Shown in pieces: positions 10,869 to 29,011 of a DNA stretch of 64,000 bases (the stretch's first letter is position 1; each line of letters opens with the position of its first letter). Made by a program: the position numbers and the translations under genes. The stretch comes from Trypanosoma brucei (Eukaryota). The stretch lies in contig CP000067.1 in NCBI GenBank assembly GCA_000002445.1, positions 832,001 through 896,000 of the forward strand. The letters are read 5' to 3'. The notes beneath the pieces are model-generated. The model did no database searches, was not told the origin of the DNA, and was given only the letters and a program-made list of their open reading frames with translations.

Positions 10869-10926
10869 ACCACCGCCGGTTTCGCGGGCGAATTTCTGTT
10901 ATAAACTTACTCCCGCAGTAAAAATA

Positions 10927-10999: not shown

Positions 11000-13900
11000 A
11001 GCAGCTTCCGTCACATTTCGGATTGCCTTTTAACGGCTGGAAATCAGTTTCCAACCAGCAGGCTCATTCTGTAAATTCGCGCTGGGAAGCTTACATCCGC
11101 TTCTTCTATGCGAACACAACAATATACTTTCAAAATAACTACTCACTGTGAAAGTATCATATTTTACTGTTTTTATGTCGTCCCACTGAAGGAGTTTGGT
11201 GTATACATGAAGCATCCGCCGCAACGACAGCTGAAATAACACCTTTTCTCCACGCGAACGCCATTGAATATGGGTTGCCTAGAGGACTGGACGGAACAAC
11301 GGGAAGTACGTGTACACGGCGTCTGGAGCTCGTAAAAAATTAAATGGAATAGTTATACTTGTATTTATTTCAACGGTTAAGAAGATTGATCGTTATGGTA
11401 AAAGTATGGAAAGAAGTAAAAATAAGGTAGCGTTGAATGAGGAGTCGTGAAGGGGATGAAAATGAAAGAATGCTCCAACTCGCAGACTTTATTCTCACTA
11501 ACTAGATCCGCTTTACCGTATATTTCAATGTAGTATAAGAGTGTTATTCTTCCGCGAGGTGAGTGTGAGATTTGTAAAGGTGAGCATCCCCTCACGCTGT
11601 TGGTACAGAGCCATCGGTGTCGGAAGCGGCTGCTGCCATATATCCGCGGAATGTGAATGACCTCCAGGAAACAGTAGAAGCCACCAGAAAGGAAGTAAAG
11701 TGAGATTTTCCCATGATAATCCTAGAATCAACGCTAGCCCTTGGTTTCTCACAAGTTTGTATCTTTTTTTTTCCTTTATCGTCTTGTTACGTTTTGCAAT
11801 TCACCCTTTTTTTTCGAGCCTCTCCTTAAACTTTTTTTTCAAGAACCTTTCTCGTTTCTTATTTAAATAATTATTAGAGTTTATATCCTGGATACCTTCA
11901 TGAAGTTCTTTTGCGTCCCTTTTTGAAACCTATGTGCATGGCACCGTTGTAATGTTTCACAAATCCTGTTGCATTCCATGCGATTGAGATTCATATCTTC
12001 CCTGGAGGCGTCAGAAATTGCAGAGTAATGGTGAGTTGAGTTTACCGTTAGGGGGAGGCCAAATGACTGTTCGCACCCTGTCATCAGGGAGACATGGCAG
12101 CTCACCGGCTGTTGGTTGTTGGGGTAACGGGGGAAGTGGAAACGATATTGGCTCCCTGATGTGGGAACCGATATCTTTGTTGTCCCTTGCACGCTCTTGC
12201 ATGTTCCCGTGGGCGTGTAGGGACAACTCCTGTTGTGGAGAAGACATCAGAGGCAACTGTAATTCACCTACTGGCGTATGGTAAGGGACTGTCTCTTCAA
12301 ATTTTTTGGGGGGAAAAAGGAAGGCTTCTTTTGCGTTTTGAAGGGGACATACATCCACGCGACGAAGAAGTGAAATGCAAAATGATGCCTGTATTTCCGG
12401 AACATTGATATAGCAAACCCTTCTAGGGGTTGACGAGTGTCAAAATCGGCAGAAAATAGCACAGGTAGAATGCAAGGCTCGTAACAAAATGGAAACTGGA
12501 AGAGTGTCAGTTAAACCGAAACTCGCTCAGGAGTAGTGGAACACACTCGTGTCAATATTTTTCTGTGGCCAAATCTGGAATCACCTGACCACTACTGGAA
12601 GGTTGCATGGAAGAGATAGTTTGAAGGTTTGCAGAAAGGCAATGGAGTAGCAATTCGACGAAGGAGGAAACTTAAATACCCCACATATCACGCGGAATGC
12701 TGCCTTGGAATAGGATTCCGCAGAATATGAGGGATAAATGTTATTGCCGCCTGAAGGAATAATAGTCACTTATAGGGATAGGGGTTTACGATGGGAATTA
12801 GGCAGTTCCTTCAGCTGTTGGAAGTTTTGAAGCAAATAGACAAGACAGCAAAAACAATGAACTTCCTGAGGAATCAGAGCAGGCAATGCAAAAGGCACTG
12901 ACCGAAGCGCAGAGTAGAACACGATACAAATGTAGATGGTGCGATTATTAGCGTGTTCATGTGTCGGGGCCCATTCTGCACACAAGGAACAAACACTCGG
13001 TGGAAGTTGGAATGAAAAAAGATACAAATGATAAAGCATCTCCGGCATCAAAGACAGCTCCAAAGACCCTCCAACGCTCGCAGTACAAAATGCGTGCAAC
13101 AAAGTGACCTCACTGAACTCATGCAGCGGAAAGGCGAATGCAAAATAGGAAAAAAAGCACAACACTGTAAAAAGTGGGTACTACTCATCTTCCCTAAAAC
13201 CGTCACAACACCCCTCCCCAGGAAGCGCTGCGTAGAGAAAGCGGTCGAAAATGCGGCAAACAGATGGTTGCCGTTTCGCATGCAACTGGCACGTTTCCAT
13301 GCAAGCTATTTCAACCAAAGGATTTGGAGCTAAACACAGAGGAGCGTCAACAGACTCAAGATAACTGTCAAAGGAATTCACACTGAAACGACCATGGGTT
13401 GGTTCAACACAAAAAAACACGCTCTTAATTAACTCTATAAGATTCTTTCGCATTCCACAGTTTCTCACGTCTCCACTGACTTGTTTCCTCTCTACGAAAA
13501 AGCAGCTCTACTTGTTTGCTACACGTATCTAAAGGGATACTGACACTTTTTTGAAACGTGTTCATCGCCTCATATCGCTTATCTTCAGACTGTTCCCACA
13601 AAGGAGCTGAAGAGCTTAATAAAAATAATAAAAATATGTTCGCATTCATACCATCAAACCCCAATAACGGAAAACATTGAAGAAAAGAATTTCCCTGCAG
13701 TTACTGATATAACATGAAGACCAACAAAAGAACTTACTCAACACTCCATAGATGGTATGTAATTAACATGCACCCAGAAACATACGCAGCCGATAGATAA
13801 TAGAAGGATCGAAATAAGTCCTCAAAATATATGCGATACAGCCTCCACTTTTTTTTTGACCTTCGCCTACGCACAAACCGCTATAAAATTGCTATGTTCC

Positions 13901-15179
13901 TTTTGAGTCGACAATTATTTTGCGTTTCTGTCAGCGCATATATCGATCTTTTCAAAAACTTTCAAACAATGCGTACAATCCTCCCCACCTAGGCAATTGC
14001 AACCAAATTTTACCAACCACCTTTACCACATATTTTGCCGAGAAAATACCCCGTGATTTGATTTTTCGTTAAATTTTTCGCCATGGAAAAGTGCATTTGT
14101 TGCTTTTCTTCGCTTCATTAATTTTACCACTTACTCTAGTAGTGTGTTTCAGGACCTCCAATAATTTGCTGCTATCGTTTATTTTGTTGGAGAATTTCTC
14201 TTCGCTAGATAAAACTTTACTGAAGGTTTTGAACGTTGTCAGTAAATCTGGCTTCTGCGGTGCACAAGCGCCGTATATTTATTTTTTTCATAAGTGCGTG
14301 CCTCAGAAATAGCACTTCCCTGGCTCAGTAATGGGACAACCACGCCCCTGTTGACTTTATTTTGAAGCTTTCTCTTACTACATCTCGGAGTAAGTTTCTT
14401 TCCCTCATGAGCTCATAAATTTCCACCACTGGTTCTTTCTCTTTTCTAGAGATGTCATTTTCACACGTCAAACCAGCTGTGATGACCTCAGATGTTCTAT
14501 TTTTTATTTTCAGTGTGGTCCCAAGGTCTCTTTCATGTAGTGAAGTTCCGGAATTGGTCTTTTATGGCTTTCATCTGTCTTTGTTCACTTCTTTTTTCAC
14601 TTTGTTTCTGCGAGTCACATATTCCAACCGTTGTCACTATGTTTTGTTAGCTCCTTGGTAGTATGTCTGTTCTGACCCACAGTAATCTGGCACTTCTTTC
14701 TTTCCATCCGTTCCATAGTGTTCATATAACCTCACCTTCGTCGTCGCAGACAAAACCATCATTTGCTCTTGATCACCTTCTTTGTACACGTAACGTTCTA
14801 TTTTCTCCCCCTTGCCATACACACGCAAATACGCAAAAATGGAGAGAAAAGTATACATCCTTGCAACCTGAACTCCCTTGTTTACCTATAACTTCAACAT
14901 AGTTCGGTCTTTTCTCGATCCACTGTATCCCCTTCTGAAAAAAAGACAAAGCATATGAGCGTACATGCTTCGTATCAAACGAAAACTCAAACTGAAGCAC
15001 GTGTGTGACCATGCATGCTCTCGCGTGATATTTAGTATCGTATACCTGTGCTACTAAGAAAATATAAAGATGCGCGCAAAGAGGAAAGGGGGTGTCTATG
15101 ACAATAGTGGCTCTGAAGATGAAGCTTAAAAAGGGAAGTAACACAAACGAGTGGAAACTGTATTCACACATTCTTGATA

Positions 15180-16109
15180 TTATACTGAAGACGCCATAAG
15201 ACTACTGAAAAGGGAATGGAGTTTGTCAGAGAGGGTGTCAATTCTGGAAGCACGTTCCGACAGCTTAGAAAGCATGACTTCAATTTCTGAGGATACATCA
15301 TTTATTTCTTTGAGGTGAGGAAGAAAAGACTTGAAAACTCTTGTTACGTTCACATCTTCTACCAGGCCGTATCTATTCGCAAGGACCTTGTCCCTACCCA
15401 AATTACCCCTTATTCCCCTGTGTTTGAAGATGTGTCCATGGGAAGTGGACACCGAATCAACTCTGTCAGCCAGTTTTCTTCCTCCAGTGCTATACGCCGT
15501 TCCATTGTGAAACCTCAAGTCGACGTGCTCGTCCCTGCTGCTGTCAAATTCGGTAATTATATCAGAAACGTCCCTTCCAGTTAAGGTTCCATCACACGTG
15601 ACTTGTATCCCATTATTCCTACAAAAGCCATGTGAATTATTCAGCATGCGCACTGCCTCCGATCCAACTCTGTACATCTCCTCCATTGTGGCTGCATACC
15701 TGGTTCCGGTTCTTACAACATCCATTGCCTTTTCCTCCATATAAGAAACACTAAGATCGAATTTCTTCCGTAAGTAGCTTTCACCTTCGAAAACACTCTC
15801 CATCTCATTTAATATTTCCTTCATTTTATCACCCTTCTCTTTTTTCATAAATGGTTTTCCGCGTAGGAATAATTCTCTCCACGCTGCATTCTGTTCTTCT
15901 GCCGAATACCTCTTCTCATACACCTCCTCTGCATGTACTCTAGTTCTTAAAAGTAGATCCTCCGTCACATTAATCATCCAATTAAGCTTCTTCACGACAC
16001 AGTCAATTTGTTTAAGGGTTGAGAGTGCTTCTTTATCAGTCTCCTGCATTCGAGAATCCACCAAGACAACAGAAATTGCAGCAAACACTACCGGAACTAT
16101 CCTCACCAT
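15180..16109 (-). CDS. Array gene B1: secreted-type ~310-aa protein of an unrecognised family, with signal peptide and no GPI-type C-terminus
   Basis: Start chosen at the internal Met (MVRIVPVVFAAISVVLV) of the 15180-16187 ORF, matching the signal-peptide starts of its paralogs. Conserved blocks are IDCVVKKLNWMINVTEDLLLRTRVHAEEVY and DKMKEILNEMESVFEGESYLRKKF. Confidence 0.7.
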   Translation of the reverse strand: MVRIVPVVFAAISVVLVDSRMQETDKEALSTLKQIDCVVKKLNWMINVTEDLLLRTRVHAEEVYEKRYSAEEQNAAWRELFLRGKPFMKKEKGDKMKEILNEMESVFEGESYLRKKFDLSVSYMEEKAMDVVRTGTRYAATMEEMYRVGSEAVRMLNNSHGFCRNNGIQVTCDGTLTGRDVSDIITEFDSSRDEHVDLRFHNGTAYSTGGRKLADRVDSVSTSHGHIFKHRGIRGNLGRDKVLANRYGLVEDVNVTRVFKSFLPHLKEINDVSSEIEVMLSKLSERASRIDTLSDKLHSLFSSLMASSV

Positions 16110-16254
16110 CCCAAGCACTTGTACCACGTAAAAGAGAACTACAGAAAAATACACGTTCTTTAAGAGAAGCACCACACACACACACACGCTAGTAGCGTGA
16201 AACTTACAATTGTAAAAATATTTTAGAAAATTACTAACATTTCCCCACCTATTT

Positions 16255-17439
16255 CTAAAACGGTACCAAGACGCACAAAAGCAACGCTACCCATGGTAGA
16301 GTTTGTTGAAACTTCACCACACCATTATTATCTTCACTATAATTATCATTCCATGGAGAATCCTTCGCGTTTCCTAATGTTTCCGTAAGTTCATTGGTCC
16401 TTTCCTTCATTTTAACAATACTTCTGACTTTTTCTTCAAGTTCCAGAAGCAACCTATCGAGTACAGCTCGTTGAGCTGTGATGGAGGTGTTTCCTGCAGA
16501 TATCTTTATGACGCTGGCACTCAGCAGATCGATTAGTTCCTGAAATTCTTCTCCAATAGAACTGAAGTTTGCCATAAGTCTGTCATTCTGTGTGTAAAAG
16601 AGGCCACCAGAAAGTTCATTGATAAAGGGCTTCTTCCCTTTTGTGTACGGCTGGTATGTCGTCGTGATATAGCATCCATAAACAGCATCGGCACCTTGAT
16701 CTCCTGCATTTCCCATAGTCAAACTGAGTTCTGTATTAAGAGGATTTTCATACTCAGCAAGGCCACCCTCGCTGTGCTGTGGTGGCTCAACTGTGCAGTC
16801 TCTGGGAACACTGCCGCGTTTACCACCTCTTATGCAATCGCCAGTTGCCCCTCCATCCACCACAAGACAGCAATTTCCATATCCTAGTGCTGCATGGTGG
16901 AAAACTTCCACCATATCCTTAATCCAGTACGCGTACGAGTCAGACATATTCAGAAGGTTCCACGATGGCAACCTCATAGCCCGCAGTGAAGTATTCATGT
17001 TTTTAATGCTTTTTTTTAACTCCAATAGTGACTCTTCCGTTTCAATCAACAACTTTGCCACCTCATTCACTCTTTTACCTCCATCTGGAATTACTTCTTT
17101 CAGAACATCCACTAAAATTGTTTTTGTTCGAACACGTGCACTGTAGTGAGCTACAATTTTTTCACAGTCTTCCACTATTTTCTCCCCGAATTTCATATTA
17201 TGTGTCACATTGTTCCTCAGTTCCCTCAGCTTCCTAACTATACTACAGATGGCATTTGCATCACTTTGTGTCAGTGCCTTGCCCTTACCCTTTTCATCAC
17301 CCTCCGGTCCACTGTTAGCACATGCCACCACCAGAAAACTAAACATAATCACCACTCCTCCAACTGAAATCATATTATCACCTTCATACACAAAACAAGC
17401 AAAAAGGAGCTTTGAAAGCATGTGCTTCTTATTCCCCAT
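16255..17439 (-). CDS. Array gene A1: ~395-aa predicted GPI-anchored surface glycoprotein of an unrecognised family
   Basis: N-terminal hydrophobic signal (an alternative start is Met23, MISVGGVVIMFSFLVVACA). Many NxS/T sites. Motif CCLVVDGGATGDC. Hydrophobic C-terminus LPWVALLLCVLVPF. The first ~135 codons are identical to A2 and A3. Confidence 0.75.
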   Translation of the reverse strand: MGNKKHMLSKLLFACFVYEGDNMISVGGVVIMFSFLVVACANSGPEGDEKGKGKALTQSDANAICSIVRKLRELRNNVTHNMKFGEKIVEDCEKIVAHYSARVRTKTILVDVLKEVIPDGGKRVNEVAKLLIETEESLLELKKSIKNMNTSLRAMRLPSWNLLNMSDSYAYWIKDMVEVFHHAALGYGNCCLVVDGGATGDCIRGGKRGSVPRDCTVEPPQHSEGGLAEYENPLNTELSLTMGNAGDQGADAVYGCYITTTYQPYTKGKKPFINELSGGLFYTQNDRLMANFSSIGEEFQELIDLLSASVIKISAGNTSITAQRAVLDRLLLELEEKVRSIVKMKERTNELTETLGNAKDSPWNDNYSEDNNGVVKFQQTLPWVALLLCVLVPF

Positions 17440-17728
17440 ATCATACTGTTATTCAAGTAAAGACAAATCTTCGCTGACACATTATCAAGGCACCCAAAAA
17501 CATGATATCGCAATGCGACCACACGTAGTCGGCCAGAAGCAGCAATAGCATATAAACACACATTCATATTTGCACATGCACATTCATTTCATGGTTATTG
17601 GACGGTTATTTTATGGTTATTTGCAAGAGGAGGGTGCAGTGAGAGTGTTAATACTGCTGACAGTTGTTGAGGCACAGGGTGTAAAAAGAGAAGGTGAGCG
17701 AAAGAGGCGTGTGTTCTCTTTTTCATTT

Positions 17729-18658
17729 TTAAGCTGTGGATATGGTGATGCTGCTGAAGATTGACTGGAGTTCCTTTTCGAGAGCGTCGATTCTGGAAGT
17801 TTGTTCCAACAGCTTGGAAGGCGTGGCTTCAATTTCGGAGATGATGTCGTTGATTTCTCTTAGAGGTGTGACAAACAACTTGAGAAGCTCTGATGCATTC
17901 ACCTTTTCTACCGAGCGAAGTTTATTCGTTTGGACGTTGTCTTTACCCAAATTGTTCCTTATTCCTCTGTGCTTGAGGACGAGCCCAAGGGAGGTGGACG
18001 CCGTATTGACTTTATCGGCCAATTTGTTTCCCCCATGGCTCTGAAACCCTCCACCGGTAAATGACAAGTCCATATAATCAGCGTCGCTGTCGAAATCGCC
18101 AACAATACCGGAAATATCTTTCCCAACAAAAGTTGTCCCGCACTTGACGTATGCACCATTATCCCCACAATAGCCATGCGACTTATTTACAATACATACT
18201 GCCTCTAATCCAACTCTGTACATCTCCACCATTGTGGCTGCATACCTGGTTCCGGTTCTTACAACATCCATCACCTTTTCCTCCAGATAAGAAACATTAA
18301 GGTTAAATTTCTTCCGTAAGTAGCTTTCACCTTCGAAAACACTCTCCATCTCATTTAATATTTCCTTCATTTTATCACCCTTCTGTTTTTTCATAAATGG
18401 TTTTACGTACACGAATAATCGTTCCCAGGCTGCGTATCTTTCCTCCGCCGAATACCTCTTCTCATACACCTCCTCTGCATGCACTCTAGTTCTTAAAAGT
18501 AGATCCTCCGTCACATTAATCATCCAATTAAGTTTCTTCACGACACAGTCAATTTGGTTAAGAGTTGTCAGTGACTCGTCGTTGTCCGCTTCTGGTGACA
18601 TGTTCTCTGCCAACACAACCCAAACTACAAAAAGCATCACTAGAAGTATCCTTATCAT
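17729..18658 (-). CDS. Array gene B2 (309 aa): signal peptide, no anchor signal
   Basis: MIRILLVMLFVVWVVLA signal. Conserved B-family blocks. C-terminus SIFSSITISTA is not hydrophobic. Confidence 0.75.
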   Translation of the reverse strand: MIRILLVMLFVVWVVLAENMSPEADNDESLTTLNQIDCVVKKLNWMINVTEDLLLRTRVHAEEVYEKRYSAEERYAAWERLFVYVKPFMKKQKGDKMKEILNEMESVFEGESYLRKKFNLNVSYLEEKVMDVVRTGTRYAATMVEMYRVGLEAVCIVNKSHGYCGDNGAYVKCGTTFVGKDISGIVGDFDSDADYMDLSFTGGGFQSHGGNKLADKVNTASTSLGLVLKHRGIRNNLGKDNVQTNKLRSVEKVNASELLKLFVTPLREINDIISEIEATPSKLLEQTSRIDALEKELQSIFSSITISTA

Positions 18659-18779
18659 CCTATAAACTTATTCCACACAAAATCGAACTACAGAAAATAA
18701 TGCCCCTTTCCGGAAAGAGACCACACCGCTAGTAACATGAAGCTGTTATTAAAAATATTTTATAAAATTACTCACTTTC

Positions 18780-19970
18780 TCAACTATTTCCAAATACAAA
18801 TGGGAGAAGAAGCAGAGCCACTCCTAGCAGAGTTTGCTGAACCCTTGCTACACTGTCACTCTCATTACTCTCTTTATCATTCCAATGAATATGTTTCACT
18901 ATTCCTAGTGTTTCTGTAAGTTCATTGGTTGTTTCCTTTTTTTCCAGAATATATCTGACTCTTTCTTCAAGTTCCAGAAGCAACCTATCGAGTACAGCTC
19001 GTTGAGCTGTGATGGAGGTGTTTCCTGCAGATATCTTTATGACGCTGGCACTCAGCAGATCGATTAGTTCCTGAAATTCTTCTCCAATAGAACTGAAGTT
19101 GGCAACGACGTTGTTATTCTGTGTGTAAAAGAGTCCTCCTGAAAGTTCATAAATGAGAGATTTCCTCCCCGAAGTGTAAGACTGATGTGTCGTCGTGATA
19201 TAGCAGCCATACTCCGAGTAGTTTCTGTAGTTTCCTGCATTTCCCATCGTTAAAGTGAGTCCTTCATCAAGAGGGTTTTTGTACTCAGCAAGGCTACCCT
19301 CGCTGCGCTGTAGCGGCTCAACTATGCAGTCTCTGGGAACACTGCCGCGTTTACCGTTCTTCATGCAATCGCCCGTTGCCCCTCCATCCACCACAAGACA
19401 ACAACTTAGAGTGCTAAGTGCCGCGTGGGCAAAACTCTCCACCGTGTCCTTAATCCAGTACGCGTACGAGTCAGACATATTCAGAAGGTTCCACGATGGC
19501 AACCTCATATATCCAAGCGACGAATGCATTTGCGCAACTAAATTTCTTAATTCATCTTTCAGTACTTTCATATCGCTCAAAAGCTTTATTATTTCAGTTA
19601 AAATTTCATCTTCTTCCGGAATTACTTCTTTCAAAACATCCACTAAAATTGTTTTTGTTTGAACACGTGCACTGTAGTGAGCTACAATTTTTTCACAGTC
19701 TTCCACTATTTTCTCCCCGAATTTCATATTATGTGTCACATTGTTCCTCAGTTCCCTCAGCTTCCTAACTATACTACAGATGGCATTTGCATCACTTTGT
19801 GTCAGTGCCTTGCCCTTACCCTTTTCATCACCCTCCGGTCCACTGTTAGCACATGCCACCACCAGAAAACTAAACATAATCACCACTCCTCCAACTGAAA
19901 TCATATTATCACCTTCATACACAAAACAAGCAAAAAGGAGCTTTGAAAGCATGTGCTTCTTATTCCCCAT
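18780..19970 (-). CDS. Array gene A2 (396 aa): predicted GPI-anchored surface glycoprotein
   Basis: The 5' ~400 nt are identical to A1 and A3. The central region is divergent. C-terminus LLGVALLLLPFVFGNS is hydrophobic. Confidence 0.75.
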   Translation of the reverse strand: MGNKKHMLSKLLFACFVYEGDNMISVGGVVIMFSFLVVACANSGPEGDEKGKGKALTQSDANAICSIVRKLRELRNNVTHNMKFGEKIVEDCEKIVAHYSARVQTKTILVDVLKEVIPEEDEILTEIIKLLSDMKVLKDELRNLVAQMHSSLGYMRLPSWNLLNMSDSYAYWIKDTVESFAHAALSTLSCCLVVDGGATGDCMKNGKRGSVPRDCIVEPLQRSEGSLAEYKNPLDEGLTLTMGNAGNYRNYSEYGCYITTTHQSYTSGRKSLIYELSGGLFYTQNNNVVANFSSIGEEFQELIDLLSASVIKISAGNTSITAQRAVLDRLLLELEERVRYILEKKETTNELTETLGIVKHIHWNDKESNESDSVARVQQTLLGVALLLLPFVFGNS

Positions 19971-20259
19971 ATCATACTGTTATTCAAGTAAAGACAAATC
20001 TTCGCTGACACATTATCAAGGCACCCAAAAACATGATATCGCAATGCGACCACACGTAGTCGGCCAGAAGCAGCAATAGCATATAAACACACATTCATAT
20101 TTGCACATGCATATTCATTTCGTGGTTATTGGACGGTTATTTTATGGTTATTTGCAAGAGGAGGGTGCAGTGAAAGTGTTAATACTGCTGACAGTTGTTG
20201 AGGCACAGGGTGTAAAAAGAGAAGGTGAGCGAAAGAGGCGTGTGTTCTCTTTTTCATTT

Positions 20260-21204
20260 TTAAGCTGTGGATATGGTGATGCTGCTGAAGATTGACTGGA
20301 GTTCCTTTTCGAGAGCGTCGATTCTGGAAGTTTGTTCCAACAGCTTGGAAGGTGTGGCTTCAATTTCGGAGATGATGTCGTTGATTTCTCTTAGAGGTGT
20401 AATAAAGGACTTGAATATCCTTGGTGAGTGAACAAACTCTACCAAGCCGTTTCCATTCGTGATGACCTTGGATTTACCCAAGTTACTTCTTATTCCTCTG
20501 TGCTTGATGATGTGCCCATAAGAGGTGGACGCCGCATTAACTTTATCGGCCAACTTGCTGCCTCCGTGTCCGCTCTGCGCTACTTTCTGTGTTTTCCTGT
20601 TTTGGAATGACAAGTCGATGTGTTCAGAGCTGTTTTCCAACACTCTAACGACGTCAGAAATGTCTTTCCCAACAAAAGTTGTCCCGCACTTGACGTATGC
20701 ACCATTATCCCCACAATAGCCATGCGACTTATTTACAATACATACTGCCTCTAATCCAACTCTGTACATCTCCACCATTGTGGCTGCATACCTGGTTCCG
20801 GTTCTTACAACATCCATCACCTTTTCCTCCAGATAAGAAACATTAAGGTTAAATTTCTTCCGTAAGTAGCTTTCACCTTCGAAAACACTCTCCATCTCAT
20901 TTAATATTTCCTTCATTTTATCACCCTTCTCTTTTCTCACAAAGTTTTTTACGTATACGTATAATTCTTTCCATGTTGTGAACCTTTCCTCTAGTGAATA
21001 CTTTTTCCCATACACCTCCTCTGCATGCACTCTAGTTCTTAAAAGTAGATCCTCCGTCACATTAATCATCCAATTAAGTTTCTTCACGACACAGTCGATT
21101 CTTTTTAGAGTAAAGCATGGTTCTCTATAACTCACCTGTGTTCTTCCAGCATATGGCAACACAAAGAAAACGACGGTAACGGTCACTTGACTTATCTTAA
21201 TCAT
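20260..21204 (-). CDS. Array gene B3 (314 aa): signal peptide, no anchor signal
   Basis: MIKISQVTVTVVFFVLPYA signal. Shares the IDCVVKKLNWMINV and DKMKEILNEMESVFEGESYLRKKF blocks. The C-terminus is identical to B2. Confidence 0.75.
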   Translation of the reverse strand: MIKISQVTVTVVFFVLPYAGRTQVSYREPCFTLKRIDCVVKKLNWMINVTEDLLLRTRVHAEEVYGKKYSLEERFTTWKELYVYVKNFVRKEKGDKMKEILNEMESVFEGESYLRKKFNLNVSYLEEKVMDVVRTGTRYAATMVEMYRVGLEAVCIVNKSHGYCGDNGAYVKCGTTFVGKDISDVVRVLENSSEHIDLSFQNRKTQKVAQSGHGGSKLADKVNAASTSYGHIIKHRGIRSNLGKSKVITNGNGLVEFVHSPRIFKSFITPLREINDIISEIEATPSKLLEQTSRIDALEKELQSIFSSITISTA

Positions 21205-21337
21205 TCCACACTCTTACTTCAGGAAAAACTAAGCCAGTTCGAAGAGCGTACCTTTTTTGGAAGGGCACATCGCTTACACGCTAGTAGTAATAAGCTGTCA
21301 ATTGCACAAATATTTTAGAAAATTACACACTTTCCAC

Positions 21338-22525
21338 CTATTTCCAAAATACAGAAAAGACGAAAAGAAGCAGAGCCACTTCTGATAGATTTGGTTTCTT
21401 GCTCATACCATCACTCTCATAACTCTCATTATCATACCAGGAAACATCTTCTATGCTTCCTAATCTTTTCGTAACATCCATGACTCTCTTTTTCCTTTTA
21501 AGGATATCTCCAACTTCTTCCTCAAACCTCAGTAACAAGCTGTGGAGTATAGTTCGTTGACCTGTGATAGATGTGTTCCACGTGAAAATGTCGCTGATAC
21601 TAGTGTTCAGTTGATCGATTAGTTCCTGAAATTCTTTTCCAACAGAACTGAAGTTGGCAACGACGTTGTTATTCTGTGTGTAAAAGAGTCCTCCTGAAAG
21701 TTCATTTATAAAGGATTTCTTTGTATTAAAGCCACCTGCGGTGCTTGTGATGTAGCAACCGTAACTATTTGGGGTTTTACCGTAGTTTCCTGAATTTCCC
21801 ATAGTCAAACTGAGTTCTGTATTAAGAGGATTTTCATACTCAGCAAGGCTACCCTCGCTGTGCTGTGGTGGCTCAACTATGCAGTCTCTGGGAACTATTC
21901 CTCGTTTTCGGTCAAAGGGACAATCTTCCATTGACCCTCCATCTACCACAAGACAGCAACTCCCGGGGCTAAACGCTGCATAGTGAAAAAAATCCACCAT
22001 ATCCTTAATCCAGTACGCATATGAGTCCGATATATTTACAAGGTTCCACGATGGCAACCTCATAGCCCGCAGTGAAGCATTCATGCTCGTAATTGTCTTC
22101 CCTAATCCATCCCTCAGTTCCCCCATCTTCTCCAGGATTCTTTCCATCCCACTGAAACTTGACTTTTCTTCTGCCATTACTTTCTCCAACACGCTCACCA
22201 GCATTTTCTTAGACATAACTTTCGCGCCGTAGTAACTTTTCACGTCTTCAGCCTCGTCCACTATTTTCTCCCCGAATTTCATATTATGTGTCACATTGTT
22301 CCTCAGCTCCCTCAGCTTCCTAACTATACTACAGATGGCATTTGCATCACTTTGTGTCAGTGCCTTGCCCTTACCCTTTTCATCACCCTCCGGTCCACTG
22401 TTAGCACATGCCACCACCAGAAAACTAAACATAATCACCACTCCTCCAACTGAAATCATATTATCACCTTCATACACAAAACAAGCAAAAAGGAGCTTTG
22501 AAAGCATGTGCTTCTTATTCCCCAT
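21338..22525 (-). CDS. Array gene A3 (395 aa): predicted GPI-anchored surface glycoprotein
   Basis: Same N-terminus as A1 and A2. Motif CCLVVDGGSMEDC. C-terminus LSEVALLLFVFSVFWK. Confidence 0.75.
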   Translation of the reverse strand: MGNKKHMLSKLLFACFVYEGDNMISVGGVVIMFSFLVVACANSGPEGDEKGKGKALTQSDANAICSIVRKLRELRNNVTHNMKFGEKIVDEAEDVKSYYGAKVMSKKMLVSVLEKVMAEEKSSFSGMERILEKMGELRDGLGKTITSMNASLRAMRLPSWNLVNISDSYAYWIKDMVDFFHYAAFSPGSCCLVVDGGSMEDCPFDRKRGIVPRDCIVEPPQHSEGSLAEYENPLNTELSLTMGNSGNYGKTPNSYGCYITSTAGGFNTKKSFINELSGGLFYTQNNNVVANFSSVGKEFQELIDQLNTSISDIFTWNTSITGQRTILHSLLLRFEEEVGDILKRKKRVMDVTKRLGSIEDVSWYDNESYESDGMSKKPNLSEVALLLFVFSVFWK

Positions 22526-22813
22526 ATCATACTGTTATTCAAGTAAAGACAAATCTTCGCTGACACATTATCAAGGCACCCAAAAACATGATATCGCAAT
22601 GCGACCACACGTAGTCGGCCAGAAGCAGCAATAGCATATAAACACACATTCATATTTGCACATGCATATTCATTTCATGGTTATTGGACGGTTATTTTAT
22701 GGTTATTTGCAAGAGGAGGGTGCAGTGAAAGTGTTAATACTGCTGATGCTTGTAATTAACATTGGCTCAAAAGGAATTATGTTCACGCATTTTTTTTATT
22801 ATACTGAAGACGC

Positions 22814-23740
22814 TCAAAGGCTGTTAAAGAGGGATTCAAGTTTCTTTTCGAGAATAGAAAACTTGTGAACACGTTCCGACAGCTTGGAAGGTGTGGCTTC
22901 AACTTCGGAGGTGAGATTACCGACTTCCCTTAGATGTGTGACAAACAACTTGAGAAGCTTCGCTGCACTCACGTGTTCTACCAAGTCGCGTTCATCCATG
23001 AGAACTCTGGCCTTTCCCAAACTATTACCTATTCCTCTGTGCTTGATGACACGTCCAAACGTGGTCGATACATTATGAACTCTATCAGCCAGCTTGTTTC
23101 CCCCTTTACTCCAGTGACCTCCGTTCTCAAACCTTAGATCTATATTTTCTTCAGTGCCGCTACCAAATTCAGCAACGATAATAGATAAATTTCCCCCAGA
23201 GAAGGCTCTCTCGCATGTAACATTGGCTTCATAAATTTCACAACTTTTTGGTACTTCTTTTCCAGAACGCACAGCTTCCAATCCAACTCTGTACATCTCC
23301 TCCATTGTGGCTGAATACCTGATACCGACTCTTACAATAGTCATCATTTTTTTTTCAAAGTAAGAAACATTAAGGTTAAAGTTTTTCTGCAAGTAGCTTT
23401 CAGTTTCAACGATTCTCTCCATCTCATTTAATATTTCCTTCATTTTATCACCCTTCTGTTTTTTCATAAATGGTTTTACGTACACGAATAATCGTTCCCA
23501 GGCTGCGTATCTTTCCTCCAGCAAATACTTCTTTTTATATACCTTTTCTGCATGCACTCTAGCTCTTAAAAGTAGATCCTCCGTCACATTAATCATCCAA
23601 TTAAGCTTCTTCACGACACAGTCAATTTGCTTAAGAGTTGAGAGAGATTCATCTCCGTGTGTTGTTTCCGCTATAACCCCCCAAAAAACAACTAGAACAA
23701 CTAAAGTGACAGCAAACACCACCTGAATCATCCTCATCAT
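22814..23740 (-). CDS. Array gene B4 (308 aa): signal peptide, no anchor signal
   Basis: MMRMIQVVFAVTLVVLVVFWGVIA signal. Conserved B blocks with a more divergent C-terminal half. Confidence 0.7.
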   Translation of the reverse strand: MMRMIQVVFAVTLVVLVVFWGVIAETTHGDESLSTLKQIDCVVKKLNWMINVTEDLLLRARVHAEKVYKKKYLLEERYAAWERLFVYVKPFMKKQKGDKMKEILNEMERIVETESYLQKNFNLNVSYFEKKMMTIVRVGIRYSATMEEMYRVGLEAVRSGKEVPKSCEIYEANVTCERAFSGGNLSIIVAEFGSGTEENIDLRFENGGHWSKGGNKLADRVHNVSTTFGRVIKHRGIGNSLGKARVLMDERDLVEHVSAAKLLKLFVTHLREVGNLTSEVEATPSKLSERVHKFSILEKKLESLFNSL

Positions 23741-23870
23741 ATGTACCTATTCCACGAAAAGCGAATCACAGGAAAACGTGTAGCCTTTAGTAAGGGTACA
23801 ACACACGCGGTAGTAGAACATAATTGTCGTCTGTATAAATATTTTAGATCACTTACTTCTCCACATACTT

Positions 23871-25019
23871 TTAGAAGAATACCAGGAAGAATAGAAACAG
23901 ACTCACCCCTCGGAGGGTTGGTTGCGTCCCCATACCATCGCTATTCCCACTCTCGTTACCAAACCATGGAATGTTCTTCGTGCTACCTAATGCTTCCGTA
24001 ATTGCTTTGTTCTTTTCTTTCTCAAGGACATGTCTGATTTCTTTCTTCAGCTTAAGTAGCAAACCATCGAGTACAGCTCGTTGTCTTGTAATTGATGTGT
24101 TCCACGCGGAAAAATTGTTTGTGACTCTTCTTAGCGGATCGATTAGCTCCTGAAATTCCTTTCCAACAAAAGTGAAGTTGGCCATAAGTCTGTTATTCTG
24201 TGTGTAAAAGAGGCCACCAGAAAGTTCATAAATGAGAGATTTTTTCCCCCTGCTGTAAGTGTCATTTGTTGTTGTGATGAAGCAGCCACATAGCGGGTAT
24301 TCGCCTTCGTCCCCTGCATTTCCCATCGTTAAAGTGAGTCCTTCATCAAGAGGGTTTTTGTACTCAGCAAGGCCACCCTCGCTGCGCTGTGGCGGGTAAA
24401 TAGTGCAATCCGTGGGGACACTGCCGCGTTTACCACCTCTTATGCAATCTCCCGTTGCCCCTCCATCCACCACAAGACAACAATTCCCGCTTCCGAATGC
24501 TGTCTGGGCAAAGAGTTCTACCATATCTTTCACCCAGTACGCATACGAGTCAGACATATTTGTGAGGTTCCACATTTGCACACTCATGCACCCGAGTGAA
24601 GCGTTCACATTCGTAATACTTCTTTTCAACACCTGGATCGGCTCCTCCATATCACTCAGCAGCTTTCCCATCACGCTCAACTTTTCTCCTTCTTCAGGAA
24701 TTAGTTTTCCCAAAACCTTCACTAACATTTTCTTTGCTTCAACACGTGTGCTGTAGTAAGTAGCAACGTTTTCGCCATTGTCCACGATTTTTTCACCCAA
24801 TTTCATATTACGCGTCACGTTATTTGCCAACTCCCTCAACTGTTTGACCACATTGCAAATGGCATCTGCATCACTTTGCGTCAGCGCCTTGCCCTTACCC
24901 TCGATGTCACCCTCCGCTTGACCGTAAGCACATACCACCACTAAACAAGCCACAACCATTCCCCTTTTGAGTGGCATCATATTATCCCCTCCTTCCAGAA
25001 ACGCAAGAAAGGCAAACAA
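23871..25019 (-). CDS. Array gene A4 (382 aa): divergent A-type predicted GPI-anchored surface glycoprotein
   Basis: Different signal peptide (MMPLKRGMVVACLVVVCAYG), but it shares ALTQSDADAICNVVKQLRELANNVT, CCLVVDGGATGDCIRGGKRGSVP and the ELSGGLFYTQNN blocks. C-terminus LRGVSLFLFFLVFF. Confidence 0.7.
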   Translation of the reverse strand: MFAFLAFLEGGDNMMPLKRGMVVACLVVVCAYGQAEGDIEGKGKALTQSDADAICNVVKQLRELANNVTRNMKLGEKIVDNGENVATYYSTRVEAKKMLVKVLGKLIPEEGEKLSVMGKLLSDMEEPIQVLKRSITNVNASLGCMSVQMWNLTNMSDSYAYWVKDMVELFAQTAFGSGNCCLVVDGGATGDCIRGGKRGSVPTDCTIYPPQRSEGGLAEYKNPLDEGLTLTMGNAGDEGEYPLCGCFITTTNDTYSRGKKSLIYELSGGLFYTQNNRLMANFTFVGKEFQELIDPLRRVTNNFSAWNTSITRQRAVLDGLLLKLKKEIRHVLEKEKNKAITEALGSTKNIPWFGNESGNSDGMGTQPTLRGVSLFLFFLVFF

Positions 25020-25092
25020 ATTGTGGATCCCTACGTGCGTATTCAGTCGGAGAACAGATCTTGATTACAATAAGTAGAACATTTGGGCTATA

Positions 25093-26325
25093 TTACGAAA
25101 ACACCAACAAAACAAAAATGCTCACCATTAAATCGAAATGGGCATCACCCTCCGTGTCAACATCCAAATTTTCTGCCTTGCCCCAGATATCTATGTTTCC
25201 TCCAAGTTTGTACTCAAGAAACATTTCCTCAGCGTCATGCTGTAAATCTTCCAACTCGTAAATATGGGAGTTTGCTTCACTTTCATACTTCTCCATGTCT
25301 TCCATGTTCTTTGTGGCATTGGTGAGACGATTGTGCCACGGTATGCCGCCATGGGATAAGGTGTGTTTGTAATTCACACACGTTGTTCCGGGTCTGTGGC
25401 CATCACATAGAAATGTTTCATTACTCGTATCATTCACGTGGCCAAATACGCCTTCCACCTGAAACTTGTCCTGCCTCATGTTAACAGATTTATCAAACTC
25501 CTCCAATGCAGCCTTTAACAGCTTTGAGTTGGATGCAATGTGCCTGTACACGCATCCGCGCTTTACCACTTGCCAAGCATCTTTGAGTGTCATTGATGAA
25601 TTAACCTCACATTTCTCTTCGGCCAAGGCGCACTCATTGCTCATGCCCGTCCACTTATTTTTTTCTGGTCGCCTCAAGTAGGTCCTGCAGGGCGAACTAT
25701 GCCCGTTGTAATAGTAGCTGCTGCTGTTCGCCTCGTCTTTCGCCTCTCCCACACATACACAAAAAAAGTCGTTAACAAGTGTTTTTCCAGTTTCATTACC
25801 GTTGCTTCCACAGCTTTCCAGAGCAGATTCATTGCTGTTGAACAGTAAACTTTTATTAGTTTCCATAATATCGTCAATGGGTCTGTTGGTCTTATGTGCC
25901 TCATCCACTAAATCACCATACACAGCTTTCATCATGCTCTCCTCAGCCTTACTGCTCTCCCGCATCGCCCTCTTTCTATTCCTGTCAATCTCTCCCTTCA
26001 CCGCTTTTGCTCTTTTGTATAGTTTCTCAATCCCTTCACGCGCCTTTTGGCTCACAGAAGTTTCTTTTCCGTTCGCTCTCGCCTCACTCACCATTACCTC
26101 GAACCTCTTCATAATCTCATCTTCCTTCTCACGGTTTCTAAATTCCGGCCTTGGCACCTTTGCTTGAGTGATCCTGTAAATCTTACAAAGGATCTCAAAC
26201 TCTCCGGTGTTGTGTTGGTAATCAGTAATGTTGAAAACACCCTTCTGTTGACCCTGACTTCCTCTTATTGATCCCCATAAAAGAGCAACCAACAATAGCA
26301 CCCCAGCGCAACCACGTCTCTTCAT
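25093..26325 (-). CDS. Gene C1 (410 aa): predicted GPI-anchored, Cys-containing, charged helical surface protein; paralog of C2
   Basis: Signal MKRRGCAGVLLLVALLWGSIRG. Motifs LVNDFFCVCVGE and CVNYKHTL are shared with C2. Multiple NxS/T sites. Hydrophobic C-terminus LMVSIFVLLVFS. Confidence 0.7.
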   Translation of the reverse strand: MKRRGCAGVLLLVALLWGSIRGSQGQQKGVFNITDYQHNTGEFEILCKIYRITQAKVPRPEFRNREKEDEIMKRFEVMVSEARANGKETSVSQKAREGIEKLYKRAKAVKGEIDRNRKRAMRESSKAEESMMKAVYGDLVDEAHKTNRPIDDIMETNKSLLFNSNESALESCGSNGNETGKTLVNDFFCVCVGEAKDEANSSSYYYNGHSSPCRTYLRRPEKNKWTGMSNECALAEEKCEVNSSMTLKDAWQVVKRGCVYRHIASNSKLLKAALEEFDKSVNMRQDKFQVEGVFGHVNDTSNETFLCDGHRPGTTCVNYKHTLSHGGIPWHNRLTNATKNMEDMEKYESEANSHIYELEDLQHDAEEMFLEYKLGGNIDIWGKAENLDVDTEGDAHFDLMVSIFVLLVFS

Positions 26326-26435: not shown

Positions 26436-27767
26436 TTAAGCGACAAAGGCAGTCAGCGCCATCATTGCTAAAACAGTCAAAGATATTGAAAAGCCGGCCC
26501 CATCCTCTTCCACCTCGTTCACTTCACTCTCCATCATTAAGTGTTCCAAATTCAAGTTAATCTTTGCTGCTGCACTTTTCATATTCTCCGCTAATTTCCA
26601 CAGCCTTCCAAGCAAAACCTTTGCCTCCTTATTGTGCCTTTCCATTTCCACCAGGTACTTCTCCGCATCCAGCAACCTCAGCTGCCACTCAATTCCCTTC
26701 TGCGTCAGAAGTCTATACGCATAATTCACGCACATTTGGTCATTCTTCCCCGTGCATATGTTTTCGCTGCGGTCAAAAACACCCGTATGTATTTTTTTTG
26801 CTCTCCCAAACACGTAGGTCCGAAATCCCTCCGATTCTTTCATGTTCATGATTATATTCTCCCTCTGCCTTCCAAGAAGCTTATTGAACTCCCTCACTGC
26901 ATCTTGGATTTTTTCTGGCGTTATCAATTTCAAATTTTCATTTTTTGGACAGGCTTCATCCTTTATCTTAAACCAGCCGGGGCCAAAAGCCACATCACTT
27001 CCATCATACGACACATTTTTCCACAGTTTCTTTCTACCCGGCCCCTTGATACTTTTGTGACAAACGGTCTCATTATTCTCTTCTCCAACGCACAAGCAAA
27101 AAAAGTCCCCCACGAGCGAACGCCCAGCCATGGCATCCTCAGTCGAGGGATGATACCCAGCTCCGCACGTTTCCTCTGCGGAGTTTCCTATTAAAGTGTC
27201 TCCGGTGTGCACCGCAAACTTTTCAAACTCCTCCTTCTCCATCAGCCTCCCAGCATTCGCCCCATAAACGACTTGCGCCATTCTTTCGAGTGCAAATTTC
27301 CTTGACACATTCGCCAGGCGCCGTTCCTCTCTTATTCCACTCACGAGTATGGTTGCCTTTTCCGCTAGTTTTATTAACTTCTCATGTGTTACCCTCCACC
27401 GAATAATATCATTTGCACGATGCATACTCATCTTAGCGGCCCCACTATTGTTAACTGTTCCTTTCCTCCTTTCCATAGCTTCTTTATACAAGGAATCCTT
27501 CACGTATGTCGCTTTCACAAACATCTGTAGCCTGTCGATGATACTCGTTAGATTCGCAGGCTCTTCCATTATTTTCTCTGGTTCCCCCTCCGCCAACCTC
27601 AATATCTCACACATTTGGTTGAACTCTTTTTCATTCACTAACTTTGAATCCTCTCCACACACCAAGTGGAAGGCACCAAAGGCCGTTAACAAGAATGTCA
27701 CTATGATTTCCTTCATTATCAAAGCCCTGCTACAAACAAAAAGAAAGTAAAGGCACCAACAAGACAA
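26436..27767 (-). CDS. Gene C2 (443 aa): predicted GPI-anchored surface protein; paralog of C1
   Basis: The probable start is the internal MKEIIVTFLLTAFGAFHLVCG signal at 27716. Motifs LVGDFFCLCVGE and CVNYAYRL. Hydrophobic C-terminus SLTVLAMMALTAFVA. Confidence 0.7.
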   Translation of the reverse strand: MSCWCLYFLFVCSRALIMKEIIVTFLLTAFGAFHLVCGEDSKLVNEKEFNQMCEILRLAEGEPEKIMEEPANLTSIIDRLQMFVKATYVKDSLYKEAMERRKGTVNNSGAAKMSMHRANDIIRWRVTHEKLIKLAEKATILVSGIREERRLANVSRKFALERMAQVVYGANAGRLMEKEEFEKFAVHTGDTLIGNSAEETCGAGYHPSTEDAMAGRSLVGDFFCLCVGEENNETVCHKSIKGPGRKKLWKNVSYDGSDVAFGPGWFKIKDEACPKNENLKLITPEKIQDAVREFNKLLGRQRENIIMNMKESEGFRTYVFGRAKKIHTGVFDRSENICTGKNDQMCVNYAYRLLTQKGIEWQLRLLDAEKYLVEMERHNKEAKVLLGRLWKLAENMKSAAAKINLNLEHLMMESEVNEVEEDGAGFSISLTVLAMMALTAFVA

Positions 27768-28614: not shown

Positions 28615-28686
28615 TTCCGGTGCCGGGGATCGAACCCGGGTCTAGCGGGTGAGAGCCGCTTGTTCTAGCCACTATACCACACCGGA
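28615..28686 (-). tRNA. tRNA-Glu(CTC)
   Basis: 72 nt. Acceptor stem TCCGGTG/CACCGGA; anticodon arm AGCGG-CTCTCAC-CCGCT; T-arm CCGGG-TTCGATC-CCCGG. A T7 run follows on the minus strand (28606-28612). Confidence 0.9.
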
Positions 28687-28773
28687 GATGCATCTCGTCA
28701 AATCTACACTTACGTTCTAAACCATAAGTTGTGATGCAGACGTTCATAATTTACTATCGAGCGGCCCCGCACC

Positions 28774-28846
28774 GCGAGCGTGGCGCAGTCGGCAGCGCGT
28801 GGGTTTCATAATCCCAAGGTCGTGAGTTCGAGCCTCACCGATCGCA
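28774..28846 (+). tRNA. tRNA-Met(CAT), elongator-type, second copy
   Basis: Sequence identical to the 10927-10999 copy, in opposite orientation. Divergent from tRNA-Glu, 87 bp away. T6 run at 28848-28853. Confidence 0.85.
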
Positions 28847-28847
28847 C

Positions 28848-28853
28848 TTTTTT
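28848..28853 (+). terminator. RNA polymerase III T6 terminator for tRNA-Met
   Basis: A T6 run begins 2 nt after the discriminator base. Confidence 0.6.
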
Positions 28854-28889
28854 GATTTCCACCTGCGAGTTTTTCAGCAGGAGAAAACC

Positions 28890-28970
28890 CGTCGACAGCA
28901 GGGTTCGAACCTGCGCGCGAGATCGCATTTGATTTCAAGTCAAACCCCGTAACCACTTGGGTATGTCGAC
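28890..28970 (-). tRNA. tRNA-Ser(TGA), type II
   Basis: 81 nt. Acceptor stem GTCGACA/TGTCGAC; anticodon arm TTTGA-CTTGAAA-TCAAA, which pairs perfectly; 13-nt variable arm; T-arm GCAGG-TTCGAAC-CCTGC. A T4 run follows downstream. Confidence 0.8.
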
Positions 28971-29011
28971 AACGGTTTACCCGACTATTTCAAACTAATA
29001 AAAAAACAGAT

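Follow-up and report, generated by a model that had tools for sequence, protein, structure and literature searches.

Recent recombination between ancient paralogues probably explains the mosaic of a two-gene tandem array in Trypanosoma brucei

In this study, a tandem array of two-gene units on chromosome 4 of Trypanosoma brucei brucei TREU927 was found to be a genuine mosaic, far beyond chance. The reading to which we give a probability of roughly 85% is that ancient, divergent paralogues were made identical in patches by recent gene conversion or unequal exchange, and that the variable cores are the unconverted segments, with no measurable positive selection. This evolutionary picture is already in the literature, so our finding mainly confirms it: Jackson 2010 reported recombination in the array, and Carnes 2015 and Jackson 2013 the repeat and its families. 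Added here are a tract map, estimates of dN/dS, the prediction that the B product adopts a three-helix-bundle receptor fold, and a hint of distant paralogy between A and B.

The window (the whole stretch of 64,000 nucleotides that was analysed, contig CP000067.1, positions 832,001 to 896,000; coordinates below count from its first letter) contains four tandem A/B units, all on the minus strand, seen as four A and four B ORFs in the ORF list and by tblastn. A tblastn search of the whole window found no further A/B remnants or pseudogenes. The array is the known chromosome-internal "4x repeat" of Carnes 2015, Tb927.4.3200-.3270; the S7 legend of that paper describes a 4x tandem of a hypothetical gene and an ESAG11-related gene with tRNA genes on either side. 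This agrees with the window, in which tRNA clusters flank the array at 10652-11000 and 28615-29160. The array forms the terminal part of a transcription unit running into a convergent strand-switch region. A1 and B1 match annotated TREU927 chromosome 4 proteins with 100% identity and coverage, the remaining copies are separate TREU927 entries, and the TREU927 family copies in the databases comprise the four array genes and ESAG11 genes at low similarity only. The true start of A1 is likely Met23 (17373), not the long-ORF ATG at 17439. A Pfam scan of A and B returned no family, VSG_B matches being confined to the two genes upstream of the array. B0 belongs to the array yet lies outside the interval 16255-25019 considered in the earlier note. 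A numbering from B0 = Tb927.4.3220 to A4 = Tb927.4.3290 was rejected, since Tb927.4.3290 carries a VSG-domain annotation; the numbering in Table 1 follows Carnes 2015.

Table 1. Array genes, neighbouring genes and segments discussed in the text (window coordinates; gene numbers inferred)
Feature	Position	Strand	Description	Basis
B0 (Tb927.4.3200)	15180..16109	-	Fam4 gene; 309 aa from ATG 16109; mechanical ORF from GTG 16187	ORF list, alignment, tblastn; numbering after Carnes 2015
A1 (Tb927.4.3210)	16255..17439	-	Fam3, ESAG11-related; predicted GPI anchor; 394 aa	100% TREU927 protein match; ESAG11 match by family profile, E 4e-8
Most divergent A core	16990..17130	-	codons ~104-150 (~45 codons), equivalents in A2-A4; pS 0.53-0.63, pN 0.33-0.40
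Largest conversion tract	17130..17869	-	B1 3' end, B-A spacer and A1 5' end; near-identical to 19661-20400 (B2 3' end, spacer, A2 5' end); 451-bp exact core
B1 (Tb927.4.3220)	17729..18658	-	Fam4; 309 aa; has a signal peptide but lacks an anchor signal; three-helix-bundle fold predicted
A2 (Tb927.4.3230)	18780..19970	-	Fam3; 396 aa	ORF list, protein match, alignment
B2 (Tb927.4.3240)	20260..21204	-	Fam4; 314 aa	ORF list, protein match, alignment
A3 (Tb927.4.3250)	21338..22525	-	Fam3; 395 aa	ORF list, protein match, alignment
B3 (Tb927.4.3260)	22814..23740	-	Fam4; 308 aa	ORF list, protein match, alignment; Fam4 example in Jackson 2013 Table S1
A4 (Tb927.4.3270)	23871..24983	-	most divergent copy; annotated protein 369 aa; mechanical ORF from TTG reaches 25019	Fam3 example in Jackson 2013 Table S1
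Two VSG_B-domain (VSG-related) genes	25093-26325 and 26436-27767	-	immediately upstream of array, same strand	Pfam

The units are 61-80% identical overall (53-76% between paralogous proteins), and exact tracts of 105-451 bp are embedded in this background. Divergence is not uniform along the genes, and the sliding identity profile along the units is a mosaic. The 451-bp tract joins A1 to A2 (17130-17580 = 19661-20111), and one of 359 bp joins A1 to A3 (17222-17580 = 22308-22666); when one mismatch is allowed per end, the latter extends to about 17171-17642 (= 22257-22728). The earlier note had made A1, A2 and A3 identical over their first ~135 codons. The shared block is real but shorter: counted from ATG 17439, A1 equals A2 for 103 codons and A3 for 73 (about 90 with one mismatch), and the rest is non-coding upstream sequence. 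An identical C-terminal block in A1 and A2, given as 16441-16560 = 18990-19110, is also present, but its A2 coordinates deviate by 10-28 bp; the exact tract covers 139 bp in the C-terminal third (16431-16569, minus strand, = 18962-19100). B1 shares 268 bp with B2 (18117-18384, minus strand, = 20663-20930), overlapped by a 105-bp tract shared with B3 (18342-18446 = 23415-23519), and an exact tract of 178 bp covers a B 3' end and spacer (17644-17821 = 20175-20352). Inside the identical tracts there are zero synonymous differences, some tracts extend into non-coding spacers, and the pairs of units joined differ from tract to tract.

Permutation supports the mosaic of 100%-identical blocks that had been claimed. 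With 214 parsimony-informative sites, 138 adjacent pairs carried the same split (75.2 +/- 6.7 expected; 10,000 permutations, maximum 102; p<1e-4), and the site patterns 12/34, 13/24 and 14/23 were clustered along the alignment. Counted in polymorphic sites, the longest stretches of pairwise identity were 129, 92, 90, 56, 54 and 27, against 99.9th permutation percentiles of 12-21 (p<0.0002); the 139-bp A1/A2 tract, for example, holds 56 consecutive identical polymorphic sites (p<0.0002). This incongruence agrees with the published tests of the same locus, array 22 (Tb927.4.3220) in Table 2 of Jackson 2010: PHI p<0.001, and 10 breakpoints by LRT and at least 9 by GARD over 2515 aligned sites. 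In that survey, mosaics were detected in 31 of 35 variable arrays.

Between the tracts, the central ~120 A codons had been described as highly variable. The three core peptides quoted for this region are correct and a divergent core exists, but its most divergent part is smaller (Table 1); a conserved block and then more variable patches lie downstream. Judged from the secondary structure of a low-confidence model, this core falls at the predicted turn between helices 1 and 2. In B, a conserved N-terminal scaffold and a variable C-terminal half were recovered by alignment at codons ~30-150 and ~150-310, respectively, but the signal peptide is variable. The A cores show the highest pN and the highest pN/pS within the genes, about 0.6 (0.57-0.66), and the variable half of B 0.37-0.68. 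Whole-gene dS between units is 0.29-0.97 (pairwise ~0.3-1.0). The dN/dS values, 0.30-0.59 for whole genes and 0.16-0.3 in conserved blocks, are crude estimates from Nei-Gojobori window counts, with saturated synonymous sites and a recombinant alignment, and could miss site-specific positive selection. In closest-pair windows, the same counts gave no significant dN>dS. Because synonymous sites in the cores are as saturated as non-synonymous ones, the cores are old; a view of them as fast-evolving was rejected. They represent old divergence under relaxed purifying selection, and diversifying selection, which the earlier note had offered beside gene conversion, is not supported.

A comparison across strains, also proposed there, gave unit numbers of 4, 3 and 2 in three assemblies, T. 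b. gambiense DAL972 having 2 and a related assembly 3; A and B alternate strictly in all three. The T. b. gambiense units share an exact tract of 586 bp in the 3' half of A and the spacer, a region in which the TREU927 units are not identical to one another. Between TREU927 and T. b. gambiense the flanks are 99-100% identical and the array 63-70%, identity collapsing at the boundary at 25093 in the identity profile, and the best cross-subspecies protein identity is 67%. Seen along the chromosome, the array is a 12-kb island of 63-76% identity amid 99-100% identical sequence. Two core types are common to both subspecies: an A3-like type (T3~G1, 86%) and an A2-like type (T2~G2, 78%). Jackson 2010 lists 0 isoforms of array 22 common to T. 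b. brucei and T. b. gambiense. Where Carnes 2015 treats the repeat, it is described as varying or absent among Trypanozoon strains.

Segmental gene conversion is strongly supported because the tracts lack synonymous change, some extend into intergenic DNA, the pairs differ, and the T. b. gambiense tract is independent. Three marks of concerted evolution were found: tracts identical at synonymous and non-coding sites, incongruence beyond chance, and lineage-specific events. The units are ancient paralogues (pairwise dS 0.3-1.0), far older than the split of the T. brucei subspecies. By analogy with other trypanosome arrays, misaligned neighbouring units probably recombine homologously and repeatedly overwrite patches of 50-750 bp, by short-tract ectopic gene conversion and/or unequal crossing-over, which would produce tracts of 100% identity within 50-70% identical sequence. 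The same recombination would alter the number of units and yield strain-specific mosaics, and the "hypervariable cores" are probably the segments that escaped recent conversion and evolve under relaxed purifying selection. Four units per genome are too few to tell gene conversion from repeated unequal crossovers. The tracts themselves homogenise the copies, which is concerted evolution, although strain-specific mosaics also arise by recombination; the suggested recombination-driven antigen or receptor diversification is therefore a possible consequence only.

We consider it very unlikely that diversifying selection made the cores while strong purifying selection kept the other blocks identical, with no recombination. 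The pN and pN/pS of the A cores would fit, as would the prediction that this blood parasite displays or secretes the products as glycoproteins, but core pS of up to 0.63 marks the cores as old. A few small windows do reach pN/pS of at least 1, B codons 81-120 among them (0.5-1.5 synonymous and 9-10.5 non-synonymous differences); the windows above 1, however, rest on at most one synonymous change and are not significant. Protein-level purifying selection cannot create tracts that are free of synonymous differences and run through spacers, and the tracts group different pairs of units. Selection as the sole cause is largely refuted.

An assembly artefact, in which reads of different repeat units were merged into chimeric units with falsely identical stretches, is more improbable still. 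Tandem repeats of 2.5 kb are difficult to assemble, TREU927 is a Sanger/BAC assembly, assembled copy number can be arbitrary (a warning given in Jackson 2010), and the number of units differs between DAL972 and the related assembly. However, the tract boundaries are pair-specific, each unit has unique flanking sequence, and all ORFs are in frame across the tract junctions. The independently produced assemblies L003 and L002 both show a mosaic of the same kind at another position, which argues against the artefact only indirectly, and Carnes 2015, in its treatment of the region, reports the 4x repeat in Tb927 with TREU927 Illumina reads mapped for comparison. Hardly any weight, equally, falls on recent unit duplications that are now degenerating, with variable regions relaxed or pseudogenised. 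Transcript tag counts for A/B are low in bloodstream and procyclic forms alike (Jackson 2013), a frameshift splits one A copy in assembly L002, and Carnes 2015 gives the locus as missing or disrupted in T. evansi and as unannotated in Lister 427. Against decay, the variable regions are neither frameshifted nor degenerate: all eight TREU927 ORFs are intact, with no internal stops, as are the four DAL972 ORFs in 2 units. Cysteines and N-glycosylation sequons are invariant between copies and between subspecies, and the dN/dS values given above are below 1, lowest in the conserved blocks. Recent patchwise recombination between old paralogues remains the preferred reading.

From its sequence, A is predicted to be an ESAG11-related, GPI-anchored glycoprotein with a signal peptide (Fam3). 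In the alignment, every A copy has a hydrophobic segment at both the N and the C terminus, and the A-family profile matches ESAG11 (P0014) of T. b. gambiense (E 4e-8, profile positions 49-284), with only about 21-22% identity. B lacks a hydrophobic C-terminal tail and is predicted to be a secreted, anchorless helical protein with a signal peptide (Fam4). The B model suggests an elongated three-helix bundle resembling HpHbR, the factor H receptor and ISG65, the fold of a class of trypanosome surface receptors to which GARP and MISP also belong. The AlphaFold model of A1 (6-sequence alignment) was unusable at pLDDT 37.8 and was left out of the fold search; its long helices (58-116, 121-156, 162-183) form a suggestive pattern at most. 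A search of PDB chain sequences with the A and B family profiles returned only weak coiled-coil or designed-protein noise. An hhalign comparison of A plus ESAG11 with B gave E 9e-4 over 210 collinear columns, and a local rerun scored 31.8, whereas the best of 2 reversed and 30 shuffled controls reached 27.2; this hints at distant paralogy of the two genes.

The products are probably located at the surface, and the diversity of paralogues may serve ligand or host-range breadth, or antigenic breadth. Given the predicted receptor-like fold of B and the strict anchored/anchorless pairing, the idea of a host-ligand receptor can be tested; if true, the extreme divergence between strains would matter for host range and for immune evasion. 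A more specific proposal is that A and B are distant paralogues forming a heterodimeric surface receptor, in which the GPI-anchored, ESAG11-like A would hold the anchorless three-helix-bundle B, much as in the ESAG6/7 transferrin receptor. The array would then be a small recombining repertoire of receptor variants, in which balancing selection for breadth of ligands or host range would maintain ancient core types while the scaffolds are reshuffled by gene conversion. We regard this as unlikely. The main text of a recent preprint on a complement-receptor screen does not include the A/B genes.

In sum, the evolution of a trypanosome surface-gene array is cleanly illustrated by this locus: patch-homogenised ancient paralogues, turnover of copy number, and no isoform common to the subspecies. 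The Jackson 2010 and Carnes 2015 entries for it (a table and a figure legend) come without a tract map, dN/dS, the independent T. b. gambiense tract or product structure, and the main text of Jackson 2007 does not carry the array identifiers. In the cell-surface phylome of Jackson 2013 (Table S1), A fits Fam3, which has a signal peptide, a GPI signal and a relationship to ESAG11, and B fits Fam4, with signal peptide, no GPI, four members and a position adjoining a strand-switch region. That work keeps the two families apart; in this array they are strictly interleaved, and they may be distant paralogues.

In the ISG65 array on chromosome 2, BARP, GRESAG4 and ESAG6/7, likewise tandem or multi-copy surface genes, mosaics and strain-specific isoforms arise by gene conversion. 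In contrast to these, the present array has a two-gene repeat unit, unusually divergent paralogues, and no unit with a clear orthologue in the sister subspecies. With the ESAG6/ESAG7 transferrin receptor it shares, by prediction, the arrangement of adjacent anchored and anchorless genes; however, ESAG6/7 are genes of telomeric expression sites whose products have a VSG-like fold, and B is predicted to be nearer to HpHbR, the factor H receptor and ISG65. Segmental gene conversion of VSGs also makes mosaic surface-protein genes through homologous recombination between diverged paralogues, but VSG variation depends on a vast silent archive, one active telomeric expression site and antibody selection during infection. 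The archive and the telomeric site, hallmarks of programmed antigenic variation, are absent from this locus, whose four co-oriented units lie in the housekeeping chromosome core between tRNA clusters. Chromosome-internal and co-transcribed, the array points to homogenisation on a germline scale rather than switching within an infection.

Two ORF types alternate strictly in the array, and the ORF listing of the window gives eight ORFs from 15180 to 25019, all on the minus strand. In protein searches, A1 and B1 were 100% identical to T. brucei brucei TREU927 entries named 'hypothetical protein, conserved', and the other A and B copies matched distinct TREU927 entries. T. b. gambiense homologues of A carry the name 'ESAG11-related'. 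The four 2.5-kb units, each an A/B gene pair, were aligned in gene orientation and compared by sliding window; identity between units fell from 100% to 35-60%. Besides the longer exact tracts listed in the table, several tracts of 50-88 bp link further pairs of units, some of them with unit 4. The biggest block (~740 bp) takes in the B 3' end, the B-A spacer and the opening 80-100 codons of A. The unit alignment and the exact tracts confirm the mosaic of identical blocks and divergent segments that the earlier note had described from the sequence alone. Its coordinates are roughly right, except for the C-terminal block, whose second coordinate pair is off by 10-28 bp. Its '135 identical codons' in A1-A3 take in non-coding upstream sequence, and the divergent A core, put at 120 codons, truly covers ~45 (~104-150).

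Coordinates of the array, its identical tracts and its surroundings (positions in the window)
Feature	Position	Strand or identity	Basis
A-type ORFs, ~395 aa	16255-17439, 18780-19970, 21338-22525, 23871-25019	minus	ORF listing
B-type ORFs, ~310 aa	15180-16187, 17729-18658, 20260-21204, 22814-23740	minus	ORF listing
Two VSG_B genes directly upstream of the array	25093-26325, 26436-27767		Pfam
Exact tract, 451 bp, A1/A2	17130-17580 = 19661-20111		
Exact tract, 359 bp, A1/A3	17222-17580 = 22308-22666		
Exact tract, 178 bp	17644-17821 = 20175-20352		
Exact tract, 139 bp, A1/A2	16431-16569 = 18962-19100		
Exact tract, 268 bp, B1/B2	18117-18384 = 20663-20930		
Exact tract, 105 bp, B1/B3	18342-18446 = 23415-23519		
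TREU927 vs compared assemblies: housekeeping genes upstream		99-100%	
TREU927 vs compared assemblies: two VSG-related genes		94-99%	
TREU927 vs compared assemblies: last VSG-related gene's stop codon through array	from 25093	63-70%	
TREU927 vs compared assemblies: patchy identity	14845 to 12836	70-76%	
TREU927 vs compared assemblies: identity regained	at 12836	~93%	
Divergence island, TREU927 / T. b. gambiense, ~12.3 kb	12836-25093		
Inverted repeat, 722 bp, with tRNA-Val(AAC)	10080-10800 and 29012-29732	99.2%	
tRNA clusters	10652-11000 and 28615-29160		

Site patterns along the alignment are incongruent. The 214 parsimony-informative sites fall into three possible splits that cluster strongly in space, with 138 adjacent same-split pairs against 75.2 +/- 6.7 expected (maximum 102 in 10,000 permutations). 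A GENECONV-style test, based on the longest stretches of polymorphic sites at which two units agree, gave runs of 129, 92, 90, 56, 54, 27, 22 and 16 sites. Each of them exceeded all 5,000 permutations, for which the 99.9th percentiles were 9-21 sites. The grouping of units changes by tract (1=2=3, 1=2, 2=3, 2=4, 1=4, 1=3), which excludes a single tree with variable rates as the source. Under the sample identifier Tb927.4.3220, Jackson (2010) recorded for this chromosome 4 array three annotated copies in T. b. brucei and two in T. b. gambiense, zero isoforms common to both subspecies, PHI p<0.001, and, over 2515 sites, 10 breakpoints by LRT and at least 9 by GARD; this length agrees with the 2.5-kb unit. 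That the array is a recombinant mosaic was thus already published, as a table row only. The locus, the families and the mosaic are all in the literature, and little here is new.

The units are ancient and divergent, the identical tracts are recent and lineage-specific, and copy number differs between genomes. T. b. gambiense DAL972 chromosome 4 has the same flanks with only two A/B units, and three are present in the T. brucei-complex assembly GCA_003543875.1 (L002). No T. b. gambiense orthologue was found for any TREU927 unit, the top protein identity being 67% for A and B alike; genome-wide identity between the subspecies is 99.2% (Jackson 2010). In the A core, TREU927 unit 3 and gambiense unit 1 are 86% identical, and unit 2 and gambiense unit 2 are 78% identical, indicating that the core types are older than the subspecies. 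The two gambiense units have in common an exact 586-bp tract of their own (478 bp in L002) across the A 3' half and spacer, a region in which the TREU927 units compared are not identical to one another. This gambiense-only location indicates that conversion acted independently in both lineages.

Other differences between the genomes were observed. The middle A of L002 consists of two overlapping ORFs (L002 12562-13161 and 13116-13739, spanning 12562-13739) and may be a genuine pseudogene broken by a frameshift, or the break may come from an indel error in long reads. Apart from this break, L002 units 2 and 3 are near-identical for over 2.5 kb, pointing to a unit duplicated very recently. In T. 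equiperdum OVI, a 214-aa fragment on a 2.1-kb contig matches the A C-terminal half in the A-family profile (E 7e-93); it is nearest the A3 type by eye, yet is a further distinct isoform, adding evidence that each strain has its own unit set. The island of extreme divergence has sharp edges, with 94-100% identity just outside and 95.5% in the adjoining 25101-25500, and the non-coding DNA downstream of the array has diverged as much as the array genes. Both TREU927 and L002 (8758-9990) have an intact copy of the 410-aa VSG_B gene beside the array. Its DAL972 counterpart (L003, the chromosome 4 region, about 8650-10000) aligns at ~95-98% as DNA and contains no ORF of at least 250 aa and no called gene; this copy may be a pseudogene or reflect sequencing error.

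The earlier note had offered segmental gene conversion or diversifying selection. Inside the tracts pS = pN = 0, and some tracts run on through spacers, so protein-level purifying selection is no explanation for them; together with the incongruent site patterns, these tracts support segmental conversion or unequal exchange. Diversifying selection in the variable regions is not supported at this resolution. Nei-Gojobori counts over all unit pairs gave whole-gene dS of 0.29-0.97 and dN/dS of 0.30-0.59; pN/pS was ~0.6 in the A core (codons 106-150; pS 0.53-0.63, pN 0.33-0.40) and 0.37-0.68 in the variable half of B (pS 0.44-0.80). The variable regions are thus also variable at silent sites, which indicates that they are old rather than fast. 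When the closest pair was scored per 40-codon window, T. b. gambiense copies included, to sidestep saturation, ratios were 0.2-0.7, and the few windows at or above 1 each rested on at most one synonymous change. The ORFs are intact and constrained: none of the eight has an internal stop, and the cysteines and several N-glycosylation sequons are unchanged across copies and subspecies in the alignment. Decay of the variable regions was rejected on these grounds.

The locus belongs to described gene families. Fam3, exemplified by Tb927.4.3270, is ESAG11-related, with a signal peptide, a GPI anchor and 7 members; Fam4, exemplified by Tb927.4.3260, has a signal peptide without a GPI anchor and 4 members (Jackson 2013, PMC3605285, Table S1). 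Fam4-7 form tandem arrays adjoining strand-switch regions (Jackson 2013, PMC3605285). In this window the last plus-strand gene ends near 9.2 kb and the first minus-strand gene lies at 15.2 kb, which places the array right beside a convergent strand-switch region. We infer the gene numbers B0=.3200, A1=.3210, B1=.3220, A2=.3230, B2=.3240, A3=.3250, B3=.3260 and A4=.3270, an order consistent with Tb927.4.3290 being annotated as a VSG-domain protein. Carnes (2015) names the region Tb927.4.3200-.3270, places tRNA genes on its flanks, and describes it as absent or disrupted in T. evansi STIB805 and as holding four genes in DAL972; Lister 427 has no genes annotated there. The inverted repeat, adjoined by one tRNA cluster on each side, brackets a ~18-kb segment holding the two VSG-related genes, the A/B array and the convergent strand-switch region. 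It could mediate inversion; for T. evansi, Carnes (2015) raises the possibility that this region is inverted, or else an artefact of assembly.

A had no Pfam match and no PDB sequence match. Its family profile matches ESAG11 (E 4e-8), confirming the 'ESAG11-related' annotation. The AlphaFold model of A is unusable (pLDDT 37.8) and indicates just three long N-terminal helices, a Cys-rich middle and two C-terminal helices. In profile-profile comparison, A (with ESAG11) aligned with B at E 9e-4 over 210 collinear columns; a local rerun scored 31.8 over 168 columns, against 20.7 and 27.2 for reversed controls and at most 24.0 for 30 block-shuffled ones. The alignment, of 168-210 columns, starts at the signal peptide, extends into the Cys-containing middle region and beats all 32 controls. 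This suggests that A and B, and thus Fam3 and Fam4, may be distant paralogues. Predicted anchored A and anchorless B alternate strictly in every assembly compared, which invites the hypothesis of a putative ESAG6/7-like heterodimer. Published transcript tags are low in bloodstream and procyclic forms alike.

In sum, neighbouring units may misalign and recombine homologously to produce the tracts, by short-tract gene conversion or by unequal exchange between sister chromatids or homologues. Such recombination would also yield unit gain and loss and strain-specific mosaics. Core diversity may be kept either because conversion is rare there, low identity inhibiting recombination, or because conversion is selected against. 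The locus stays of interest for what its paired A/B products do and for how extremely the subspecies diverge at this one place. Homologous recombination between misaligned units is the accepted account for other trypanosome arrays (Jackson 2007, 2010).
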